Shown here piece by piece: positions 1 through 3,000 of a stretch of 64,000 nt of DNA. The stretch lies in the NCBI RefSeq assembly GCF_044324875.1, contig NZ_CP172185.1; one strand, 5' to 3'. A program made the position numbers. Origin of the DNA: Escherichia coli (GTDB lineage Bacteria > Pseudomonadota > Gammaproteobacteria > Enterobacterales > Enterobacteriaceae). The stretch's first letter is position 1, and the number at the start of each line of letters is the position of its first letter.

Positions 1-3000
1 TGAGTTTTGTATGGATAATAAAATCTTTTTAAATCATAAGGGGAAGAAGTCGTATAAAGAAAGGAATTTATTTCTTTTCTCAAAAGGTGACAAGATAACA
101 ATTGAAGATAATGTTATTGCTGAAGAATATTCAACAATGCCTGTAAAAAATTTCTCCAGTGTCGGCGCTTTTTCATTCCCGACCTGTCATTTTACAGGGA
201 ATATACATATAGGTCGATTTTGTAGTATTGCATCAAATGTAAAAATAATGGGTGGAAATCATCCTTTGAATCGTTTTACTACTCACATGATGACTTATAA
301 CGGTGAATTTGATAAGTTTGCTATGAGTGAGTTTGAACGTAGCTGGACATTGAAACCATTCATTACCAAACCTGAAAATCCGATTATAGGAAATGATGTC
401 TGGATAGGAAATGATGTTGTATTGAAAGGTGGCATCGCAATAGGTGATGGTGCTGTTATTGCTGCCAATTCCGTTGTTACAAAAGATGTGCCCCCATATG
501 CCATAGTTGCAGGAGTTCCTGCAAAAATAATCAGATTTAGATTTGATTCAAATATTATTGATGAATTGTTGAGAATAAAGTGGTGGAATTATAATTACTC
601 AGATCTTCCGGATAATAACAAATGTGATGATATAAATTATTTTGTTGAAGAGATGAATCGATTGATATCAAATGGAAATATTCAAGAGATGGACTATAAA
701 AAATTCAATCTTTCTGAGATATTTAGAGACCTATAATTATCTGTTCTGCATGATAAATGGGCAAGATAACCAGTGCGGGGTTTGCAATTTCAATGGGACA
801 GCGTCATCAAGGAGATTGCAATCATCCTGCCATGCATATACTTTTCGCCATCTTTTTATATTTACTTTATTCCCTGAAAGTATAAAGCATTTATAGACTC
901 CAGCGCGTCTAAAGTATTGATGATAGAAAAATGTGAAAACAAGGTTCCCTTTGAATCAGTAAGCTGTCTGTATAGACGACAGGGGGGGGATGTTTTCTAC
1001 TTATTTCAATGTAGATGTCAGCAAAAAGAAGTAAATATTAAGGATAATGTTGTAAGCCTGGAGAGTATGAGATGATCTTGCGTACTGTCAGAGCACTGAT
1101 TTCTCTGACAGTACGTGCTGCGTGCAAAATCACTACATCAAATAAACCAGCCAAATCTCATAGAGATAAGAGTAAACAAACCAACAGCAGCAAAGACATT
1201 TATCAGTACTACAGTTCTACTGGAAACATTCATTTTTGCCACCTTTTATCATTGCCCCTATGTGTATAGTACGGGTTAAGAAAATCCGCAATAATGCTCA
1301 TTCTGAAGATGGATAAGGGCAAGTTGCTGTTTGATGATTTTTTCTCAAACCGGTTAAAAAACTTGATGTGCGTCAAAAAATGACGCATATTTGCGCGCGT
1401 TTTATTCATCTGGCTGGACGCCCGTACATGTCTCTCTATCAACACATGCTTGTTTTTTATGCGGTTATGGCAGTAATCGCATTTCTTATCACCTGGTTTC
1501 TTTCTCACGATAAGAAACGCATCCGTTTCTTAAGCGCCTTTCTGGTGGGGGCAACATGGCCGATGAGTTTCCCGGTGGCGCTGTTGTTTTCACTGTTTTA
1601 AATCTTACTCACTGGCTTGACGGCACCACGCAGACTTATATCATTTGGATGAATCGATAAATTTCACAAGTGGCTAAGGAGAAAGTATGTCGCATCTGGA
1701 TGAAGTCATCGCGCGCGTGGATGCCGCGATTGAAGAGAGCGTCATTGCCCATATGAACGAATTATTAATCGCCCTGAGCGATGACGCGGAGTTAAGTCGG
1801 GAAGATCGCTATACCCAGCAGCAGCGTCTGCGCACAGCGATCGCCCATCACGGTCGCAAACATAAAGAAGATATGGAAGCGCGCCACGAACAGTTAACCA
1901 AAGGTGGCACCATCCTCTGATTAAAATGTGCGCCTGGCCACCAGCCAGGCACCAACCACAAGTAAAATTGCGCCACAAATTGGGCCGATCAACGCCCGTA
2001 GTGGTACGCCATGGCTGCGGAAGATATCCAGCACCAGACCGCCAATCAGCTGGCTGGCGACCAGTACCGCAATAGTTGTCGCCGCTCCCACATTCTGATA
2101 TCCGCTGATACTGGCGAAGACAAAAAACGATCCCAGCAAGCCAGGTATAAGTGTCCACCAGCGCACGTTGGACACCAGTTCGCCAAACCCCGCCATACCT
2201 TGTTTAAACCATAAAATAGAAACAAAGAGCACAATCCCCACCAGTGAGTTCAGCAACATGGCGATGAGAATGGTAGAGGAGGTCTGGGTGATGCGCACCA
2301 TCAGCGTGTTCTGGACTACCAGACCAATTCCGGCGGCAATCAAAAAAGCAAGGGTGAGCGACTGATTCATCCAATCGCGTCCGGTTCAGTGCGCTCGTCG
2401 AGTTGCAACTGCATAAATGTCAGATCCAGCCAACGACCAAATTTAGTGCCTACCTGCGGCATTTGTGCGGTGACGACAAATCCCAGCGTCTGGTGGAGAT
2501 GCAGCGAGGCCTGGTTTTGCGATTCGATCCCGGCGACCATGACATGCTTCCCGCAATCCCGCGCTTCATCAATCAATCGGCTTAACAATTTACGCCCCAG
2601 ACCTTTGCCCTGATGATCGGGATGGACATAAACCGAATGTTCCACGGTATGGCGAAAACCATCGAAACTACGCCAGTCGCCAAACGAGGCATATCCCGTC
2701 ACTACGCCATCTTCTTCGCTCACCAGCACCGGATAACCTGCTATGGTCCGCGCTTCAAACCAGGCAATGCGGTTATCAGCATCCACCGTTTGGTCATTCC
2801 AGATAGCCGCCGTATACAACACGGCGTGGTTATAAATTTCCGCAATGGCAGCACAGTCGGCTTTGCGGGCAAAACGGATGGACATGTTTGGCCTCGATTA
2901 AATAATGATGATGACGTTATCAATACTATCGAAAACAGCCCGAAGCAACGGATTCCTCGATGAAATTATTGCGTGTTGCAGAGGGGATGTGACGGCTGCA

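Follow-up and report, generated by a model that had tools for sequence, protein, structure and literature searches.

A perfect palindrome upstream of the orphan toxin gene ortT in Escherichia coli very probably reflects a chance overlap with a conserved promoter and FNR box

The promoters of type II toxin–antitoxin systems carry autoregulatory palindromic operators, such as the MqsA or HipB palindromes. The orphan membrane toxin gene ortT (ydcX), induced by triggers of the stringent response and by heat, has no antitoxin (Islam et al. 2015). Earlier work has proposed tight transcriptional control for it and predicted sigma-E and sigma-H promoters. In K-12, the region between ydcX and the divergent yncL is known to be bound by the global anaerobic regulator FNR. 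Grainger 2007 (PMC1802558, Table 2) reported an FNR ChIP-chip peak at ydcX with the motif AAAACTTGATGCACGTCAAAAAAT; the gene was not identified by transcriptome analysis and the distance to its start was given as unknown. In Myers 2013 (PMC3688515), ChIP-seq and ChIP-chip both detected the yncL/ydcX peak: all dataset columns of Table S5 are positive for it, and its height in wild type is 2.78 (Tables S5–S7). With a PWM score of 14.54, the site predicted there, TTGATGCACGTCAA, is on a par with those of narG, ompW and uspF, and the same study reported IHF ChIP enrichment at the yncL/ydcX site. Its target gene was entered as 'indistinguishable' and its start as 'unknown', and no fnr- or O2-dependent change of ydcX appeared in glucose minimal medium (Table S9, Categories 3–5). 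More generally, 19 of the 23 FNR-activated promoters in that work have their site at −41.5 ± 4; the sites of repressed promoters range from −125.5 to +1, including −22.5, −11.5 and −0.5, and 156 FNR-bound operons show no FNR-dependent change (Myers 2013, PMC3688515). Our literature search on ortT/ydcX found no study directly testing FNR control of ortT.

Here we analysed a 64,000-nucleotide stretch of the E. coli contig NZ_CP172185.1 (hereafter the window), in which the gene order is patD, a CatB-like acetyltransferase gene, yncL (−), ortT, ydcY, ydcZ (−), mnaT (−), curA and mcbR. The CatB-like gene is AT-rich and absent from K-12. Positions 1000–2000 share 95%–99% identity with 5,415 of 5,426 complete E. 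coli genomes. The original prediction had taken a perfect inverted repeat upstream of ortT for a candidate operator dedicated to this toxin gene. The features of the region are as follows.

1138–1233, minus strand: coding sequence of the divergent yncL, 31 aa
1356–1362, plus strand: conserved AAAAAAC flank directly 5' of the −35/FNR box, 0.6–1.6 bits per column
1363–1368, plus strand: ortT −35 hexamer TTGATG (−36 to −31), the same bases as the left FNR half-site; from conservation and the transcription start
1363–1376, no strand assigned: FNR box TTGATGTGCGTCAA, TTGAT-N4-GTCAA, centre 1369.5; from consensus match, conservation and published ChIP
1369–1387, no strand assigned: perfect 7-5-7 palindrome TGCGTCA-AAAAA-TGACGCA; exact sequence read
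1386–1391, plus strand: ortT −10 hexamer CATATT (−13 to −8); from conservation and the transcription start
1392–1398, plus strand: GC-rich discriminator TGCGCGC between the −10 and the start; from conservation
1399, plus strand: ortT transcription start, a G, giving a 29-nt 5' UTR; transferred from K-12 (Cho 2014)
1428–1601, plus strand: coding sequence of ortT (ydcX), an orphan membrane toxin of 57 aa

Mapping the ortT transcription start had been suggested as a check on the operator, and a published start answers it. By 5'-triphosphate-enriched RACE-seq, Cho 2014 (PMC3923258, Tables S4 and S6) placed the K-12 ydcX start at 1515384(+) with 37 reads in exponential phase; its upstream string ends ...CATATTTGCGCGCG. 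String mapping puts this position of U00096.2 at 1517360 in NC_000913.3 and at 1399 in the window, a start measured aerobically in K-12 and transferred to the present strain. The yncL start at 1515241(−) in K-12 (Cho 2014, PMC3923258) corresponds to window position 1256, with a −10 element, CTATACA, at 1269–1263, and the ydcX and yncL start strings give the same old-to-new K-12 offset of 1976. The start-site tables of Cappable-seq, ROSE and SMRT-Cappable-seq hold no entry for the ortT locus. Judged by a spacing of 16–18 nt between the hexamers and a start 6–9 nt past the −10, the region has the layout of a sigma-70-type promoter: TTGATG, a spacer of 17 nt, CATATT, and the published start 8 nt past the −10. 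A generic promoter scan missed it because the two hexamers match the consensus at 8 of 12 positions and the scan needs 9.

Comparison of orthologous promoters showed that this layout is kept in a fixed register. Eighty ortT loci, drawn from Enterobacteriaceae and related groups and covering about 20 genera, gave together with the window, K-12 and strain 746 a set of 83 promoter sequences, 73 of them distinct. All 83 contain the block AAAAC-TTGAT-N4-(A/G)TCA(A/T/C)-N9-CATATT-GCGCGCG in one register, 61–67 nt before the ATG, and all fit TTGA-N19-CA-N3-T, that is, a fixed 17-nt spacer from −35 to −10. The alignment was anchored by a pattern forcing TTGA, CA and T, which every sequence fitted, and the invariance of those seven columns is therefore built in. 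In the −10 region, G1385 and T1388 are each found in 73/73 distinct promoters and A1389 in 70/73. GCAT is invariant, and the hexamer variants CATAGT, CATTAT and CATGTT all keep A as the second and T as the sixth base, as a −10 element does. The discriminator reads GCGCGCG in most genera. Columns 5' of position 1356 carry 0.03–0.5 bits in the 73 distinct promoters.

For the ydcX start, Cho 2014 (PMC3923258) lists sigma binding D, S and H, binding plus motif D, S and H, and D, S, H and F in the motif column; on this assignment the promoter holoenzyme is sigma-70, sigma-S or sigma-32. A sigma-32 reading (CTTGAT-N14-nCnCATAT) fits in part and agrees with both the assignment and the heat induction; it leaves our conclusion unchanged, since the −35 and −10 would be common to all three sigma factors. 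A sigma-E reading (AAAACTT ... TCAAA) was rejected, as its spacing on our own inspection is about 10 nt and not about 16. Shimada et al. 2017 described a strong RNA polymerase–sigma-S SELEX peak in the yncL–ortT spacer, obtained in vitro with no other factors. Given that the Salmonella yncL orthologue is sigma-S dependent, this peak may belong to either promoter. On the minus strand, the divergent −35-like hexamer TTGACG is followed by no conserved −10, and the yncL start lies 113 bp off. Conservation together with the published start thus shows the architecture of the ortT promoter: a −35, a 17-nt spacer, a −10, a discriminator and a start at 1399.

The −35 hexamer and the spacer hold a second element. 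The FNR box TTGATGTGCGTCAA agrees with the consensus TTGAT-N4-ATCAA at 9 of 10 positions, and nothing else in the 64-kb window matches TTGATNNNNRTCAA; its K-12 version is TTGATGCACGTCAA, with half-sites and flanks identical to those of the window. All 83 promoter sequences carry TTGA(T/C)-N4-(A/G)TCA(A/T/C)-N9-CA(T)NNT in the same register. In the half-sites, T1367 and T1373 are each present in 72 of the 73 distinct promoters, and C1374 and A1375 in all 73. Among the same 73, positions 1368, 1371 and 1377 are nearly free and 1369–1370 partly constrained, with T at 1369 in 56/73 and only G or A at 1370; common descent or some additional constraint may lie behind this non-random centre. The 73 nevertheless include about 20 different N4 tetramers, so that the half-sites are kept while the centre varies. 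The two half-sites are complementary at 4–5 of 5 positions in 60/73 sequences, and 92.9% of the alignment cells pair. An FNR site is recognised by just such a pattern, (A/G)TCAA conserved within a promoter spacer and set in a dyad with TTGAT across 4 central bp that are partly free. Of the consensuses for NsrR, IHF, MarA/SoxS, PurR and GntR-type sites, none fits across genera. Of 82 loci, yncL was detectable in 26 and ydcY in 8, yet every one has the block; the box is thus retained in 56 loci that have no nearby yncL, which indicates that it belongs to ortT. Published ChIP shows that FNR occupies the K-12 allele of this box in vivo under anaerobic conditions.

Relative to the ortT start, the box spans −36 to −23 with its centre at −29.5. 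This is not the position of a class II activator site, for which the centre would lie at −41.5 ± 4. Given a centre outside the activator window and over RNA polymerase contacts, we infer that FNR represses ortT, a reading that geometry favours by a modest margin over even odds. In the proposed mechanism, dimeric [4Fe-4S]-FNR bound to the −35 and the spacer in the absence of oxygen would block RNA polymerase, whatever its sigma factor. The response of ortT to its inducing stresses, heat and the stringent response, would then be confined mainly to conditions that inactivate FNR, namely the presence of oxygen or nitric oxide. If the promoter is weak without an inducing stress, the null result in glucose minimal medium would be expected. 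Circumstantial support comes from strain CFT073: in anaerobic, nitrate-grown cells lacking NO detoxification, ydcX rose 11.85-fold alongside cyoABCD and sdh, and the authors of that study ascribe part of the expression pattern to inactivation of FNR by NO. The ydcX induction could equally come from effects of NarL/NarP, ArcA or NsrR. Taken as a whole, the account in which an incidental palindrome overlies an FNR box and core promoter, with FNR occluding RNA polymerase anaerobically, has in our estimate a probability of about 0.75.

The reading that survives best beside FNR repression, though an unlikely one, is that the box activates or otherwise does not repress, either at a second, class II promoter with a start near 1411 or by acting on yncL. 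FNR is more often an activator, and a moderately conserved T/A-rich patch at 1400–1406 lies about 22 nt past the box, at the place expected for a class II −10. On our own inspection, however, no hexamer with A as second and T as sixth base recurs in a consistent register at 1399–1408 across genera, and no FNR-dependent anaerobic increase of ydcX was seen in glucose minimal medium. An action on yncL sits poorly with a box at −113.5 from the yncL start that is conserved where yncL is absent.

Somewhat less probable still is binding that is real and of no regulatory consequence, the dyad being kept only since TTGAT is also the −35. Two genome-scale studies saw no expression phenotype, and Myers 2013 (PMC3688515) lists 156 bound operons without FNR-dependent change. 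Against it, the right half-site (A/G)TCA is conserved in 72–73 of 73 promoters over about 20 genera while its neighbours vary, and RNA polymerase imposes no base preference in the spacer that could account for this.

An operator of a dedicated repressor, the 7-5-7 palindrome itself being its target, now appears very improbable. The repeat does exist as first described: TGCGTCA-AAAAA-TGACGCA was confirmed exactly at 1369–1387, its centre (1378) is 50 bp 5' of the ortT ATG (1428), as predicted, and it lies in the 194-bp spacer common to ortT and the divergent yncL. With one mismatch allowed, its arms grow to 10 bp (1366–1375 and 1381–1390). It covers −30 to −12 of the ortT promoter, that is, the spacer and the first 2 nt of the −10; this position between −35 and −10 is a classic one for a repressor, and a toxin that has no antitoxin and for which tight transcriptional control has been proposed would suit one. 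The significance attached to the repeat did not hold up. Counting every perfect inverted repeat whose arms reach 7 bp or more, with a spacer of 0–10, gives 110 in the window versus 49 ± 9 in dinucleotide-preserving shuffles of it, an expectation of about one per 1.3 kb from the shuffles; such repeats are common, and a 7-bp palindrome is statistically unremarkable. A search for the motif elsewhere, which had been proposed as a check, found no second TGCGTCA-N5-TGACGCA copy within the 64-kb window even with up to 2 mismatches tolerated. Furthermore, none of the neighbours of ortT (yncL, ydcY, ydcZ and mnaT) is a regulator gene, and mcbR, the closest gene for a transcription factor, lies over 3.5 kb off.

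Lack of conservation largely refutes a dedicated operator. The exact 41-mer of the window (1355–1395) is present in 2 of 5,426 complete E. coli genomes, versus 4,810 of 5,426 for the K-12 41-mer, which has only 5-bp arms; the sole difference between the two is at 1369–1370, CA in K-12 and TG here. If dyad symmetry were maintained in orthologous promoters, the arms should pair, and they do not: fully complementary arms (7/7) occur in one of the 73 distinct ortT promoters, the window alone, and the commonest value is 2–3 of 7. When 62 distinct 41-mers are aligned without gaps, 57.8% of the cells of the 7-5-7 helix are paired (G–U counted) versus 59.1% in shuffles, and no meaningful compensatory changes for this helix were found in that alignment. 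As judged from these sequence comparisons, the palindrome is a rare strain-specific allele, neither conserved nor itself under selection. What stands of the original prediction is that a regulator-binding site upstream of ortT overlaps the left arm and that the palindrome lies inside the core promoter. The dyad was the wrong one, since the conserved dyad is TTGAT-N4-GTCAA centred at 1369.5 and not 1378; nor is the regulator a dedicated one, for the protein with published in-vivo occupancy is the global anaerobic regulator FNR.

A role of the palindrome as an RNA hairpin, either a 5'-leader structure from an upstream promoter, for which the predicted sigma-E and sigma-H promoters could serve, or a minus-strand antisense terminator, is barely credible: the window RNA does fold well on the plus strand (11 pairs, −14 kcal/mol, z = −5.6) and on the minus strand (−10.2 kcal/mol, z = −4.0), and a weak minus-strand terminator-like pattern was scanned at 1400–1383, but the mapped start at 1399 lies downstream of the hairpin with no other plus-strand start between yncL and ortT in Cho 2014 (PMC3923258), the K-12 allele folds at only −5.7 kcal/mol (z = −1.0), covariation is absent, neither strand has a U-tract immediately after the stem, the terminator-like pattern was rejected as having 5 pairs, no conservation and no gene to terminate, and RNA from the cloned flanking regions had no effect on OrtT toxicity (Islam et al. 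2015).

The incidental palindrome is therefore best described by the elements beneath it, and very probably the promoter and the FNR box are the real ones. The left arm, TGCGTCA, combines the last two free central bases of the FNR box with its right half-site, GTCA(A), and the right arm, TGACGCA, runs into the −10 hexamer CATATT (1386–1391). A chance repeat of 5 bp becomes one of 7 bp through two substitutions among the unspecified central bases of the box (GCAC in K-12 to GTGC here). More tentatively, and at somewhat less than even odds, the FNR box in the −35 and spacer may make a toxin without antitoxin subject to gating by oxygen and nitric oxide, silencing the membrane-depolarising OrtT in anaerobic growth, as a cassette kept across about 20 enterobacterial genera whatever the neighbours. 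If repression of ortT by FNR is confirmed, an oxygen and nitric oxide input would be added to an orphan toxin so far tied only to the stringent and heat-shock responses, and one of the FNR sites that Myers 2013 (PMC3688515) found bound but without effect would join the repressed class. The FNR ChIP site and the mapped start, both published, are brought together here for ortT for the first time; they put the centre of the box at −29.5, on the −35 and spacer, and so give the simple, testable prediction that FNR represses ortT. The result also carries a caution, in that a perfect palindrome is easily misread as an operator. Beyond correct annotation its importance is small, and a specialist would not be surprised by it.

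The underlying feature is already known, being the published FNR site of the yncL/ydcX region (PMC1802558, PMC3688515): it is the same locus and the same box, K-12 TTGATGCACGTCAA corresponding to TTGATGTGCGTCAA of the window. Unlike the K-12 site, the box here has TG as its two central bases in place of CA, which creates the perfect 7-bp palindrome. Our additions are modest, namely the placement at −29.5 that follows from the ChIP site and the mapped start, the assignment of the site to ortT and not to yncL, and its conservation across genera. The operators of type II toxin–antitoxin systems provided the analogy behind the original prediction, as they too place a palindrome inside the promoter of a toxin gene. 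Unlike those systems, ortT has neither an antitoxin nor an adjacent regulator, its palindrome is not conserved, and the bound protein is a global regulator. A closer parallel is offered by gadE (−22.5), can and hisL (both −11.5) and fnr (−0.5) in Table 1 of Myers 2013 (PMC3688515), where, as at ortT, a single FNR box lies over core promoter elements and outside −41.5 ± 4. Repression is experimentally documented at gadE, can, hisL and fnr, whereas at ortT it is the geometry that points to it. Peculiar to ortT among these promoters is that the left FNR half-site is itself the −35 hexamer.

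The promoter of the orphan toxin gene ortT (ydcX), together with its FNR box, stays with the gene in Pantoea and Mixta (loci L070-L072, L078 and L082 of those compared with the window) as it does in the Escherichia loci, and the gene neighbourhoods of the two groups are quite different. Of the neighbours seen here, yncL accompanies ortT in 26 of 82 loci, and ydcY is found with it in 8/82, all of them from Escherichia. In Pantoea sp. MT58, ortT has been reported to be plasmid-borne. This small gene and its own promoter seem to travel together as one unit.

Alignment of 73 distinct ortT promoter sequences from about 20 enterobacterial genera revealed that the centre of the FNR box (window 1369-1370) is not fully random. 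Position 1369 is T in 56 of the 73, and column 1370 is occupied by G or A only, a bias that could come from common descent, from a preference of FNR in DNA bending or from a constraint on the spacer. The discriminator of the ortT promoter (window 1392-1398) is also conserved among the orthologues and GC-rich (GCGCGCG). Such GC-rich discriminators are typical of promoters that are inhibited by ppGpp/DksA. Stringent-response triggers have nevertheless been reported to induce ortT, which suggests that induction runs through an alternative sigma factor and not by a direct effect on a sigma-70 promoter.

The published K-12 coordinates of this FNR site disagree. Grainger 2007 (PMC1802558) gives the centre of the ydcX site as 1,515,344.5; however, the sequence printed there centres, by the same coordinates, on 1,515,354.5, given that Myers 2013 (PMC3688515) places the first base of the FNR box at 1,515,348. 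The older table looks to contain a 10-bp slip.

The surroundings of ortT in the window hold the following features:

1-736, continuing upstream of the window start: gene for a CatB-related O-acetyltransferase, compared with the ortT loci L001 (L001:1928-2737) and L002
1083-1115: 12-bp perfect inverted repeat, GTACTGTCAGAG-N9-CTCTGACAGTAC, between yncL and the convergent upstream gene
1256-1269, minus strand: yncL promoter, with -10 element CTATACA and C at -13
1930-1952, minus strand: strong hairpin resembling a terminator, GTGCCTGGCTGGTGGCCAGGCGC, with a T-run after it

The acetyltransferase reading frame, truncated by the left edge of the window, is AT-rich (32% GC versus 49% for the window) and is placed between patD and yncL both here and in strain 746. 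K-12 lacks this gene, and there the yncL terminator region comes directly after patD. It looks like an accessory insertion.

At the convergent ydcY/ydcZ junction, the 1930-1952 hairpin overlaps the 3' end of ydcZ and is probably a bidirectional terminator. The 1083-1115 repeat, identical in K-12 and devoid of a clear U-tract, probably forms a bidirectional transcript-end hairpin common to both convergent genes; patD-yncL is listed in a 2025 paper as an overlapping-transcription ('excludon') pair. The yncL promoter, with its CTATACA element and C at -13, looks to be of the sigma-S type, and the strong sigma-S SELEX peak in the yncL/ortT spacer may fit it as well. This assignment agrees with the published yncL start, which maps to window 1256, and with the sigma-S dependence of yncL in Salmonella.
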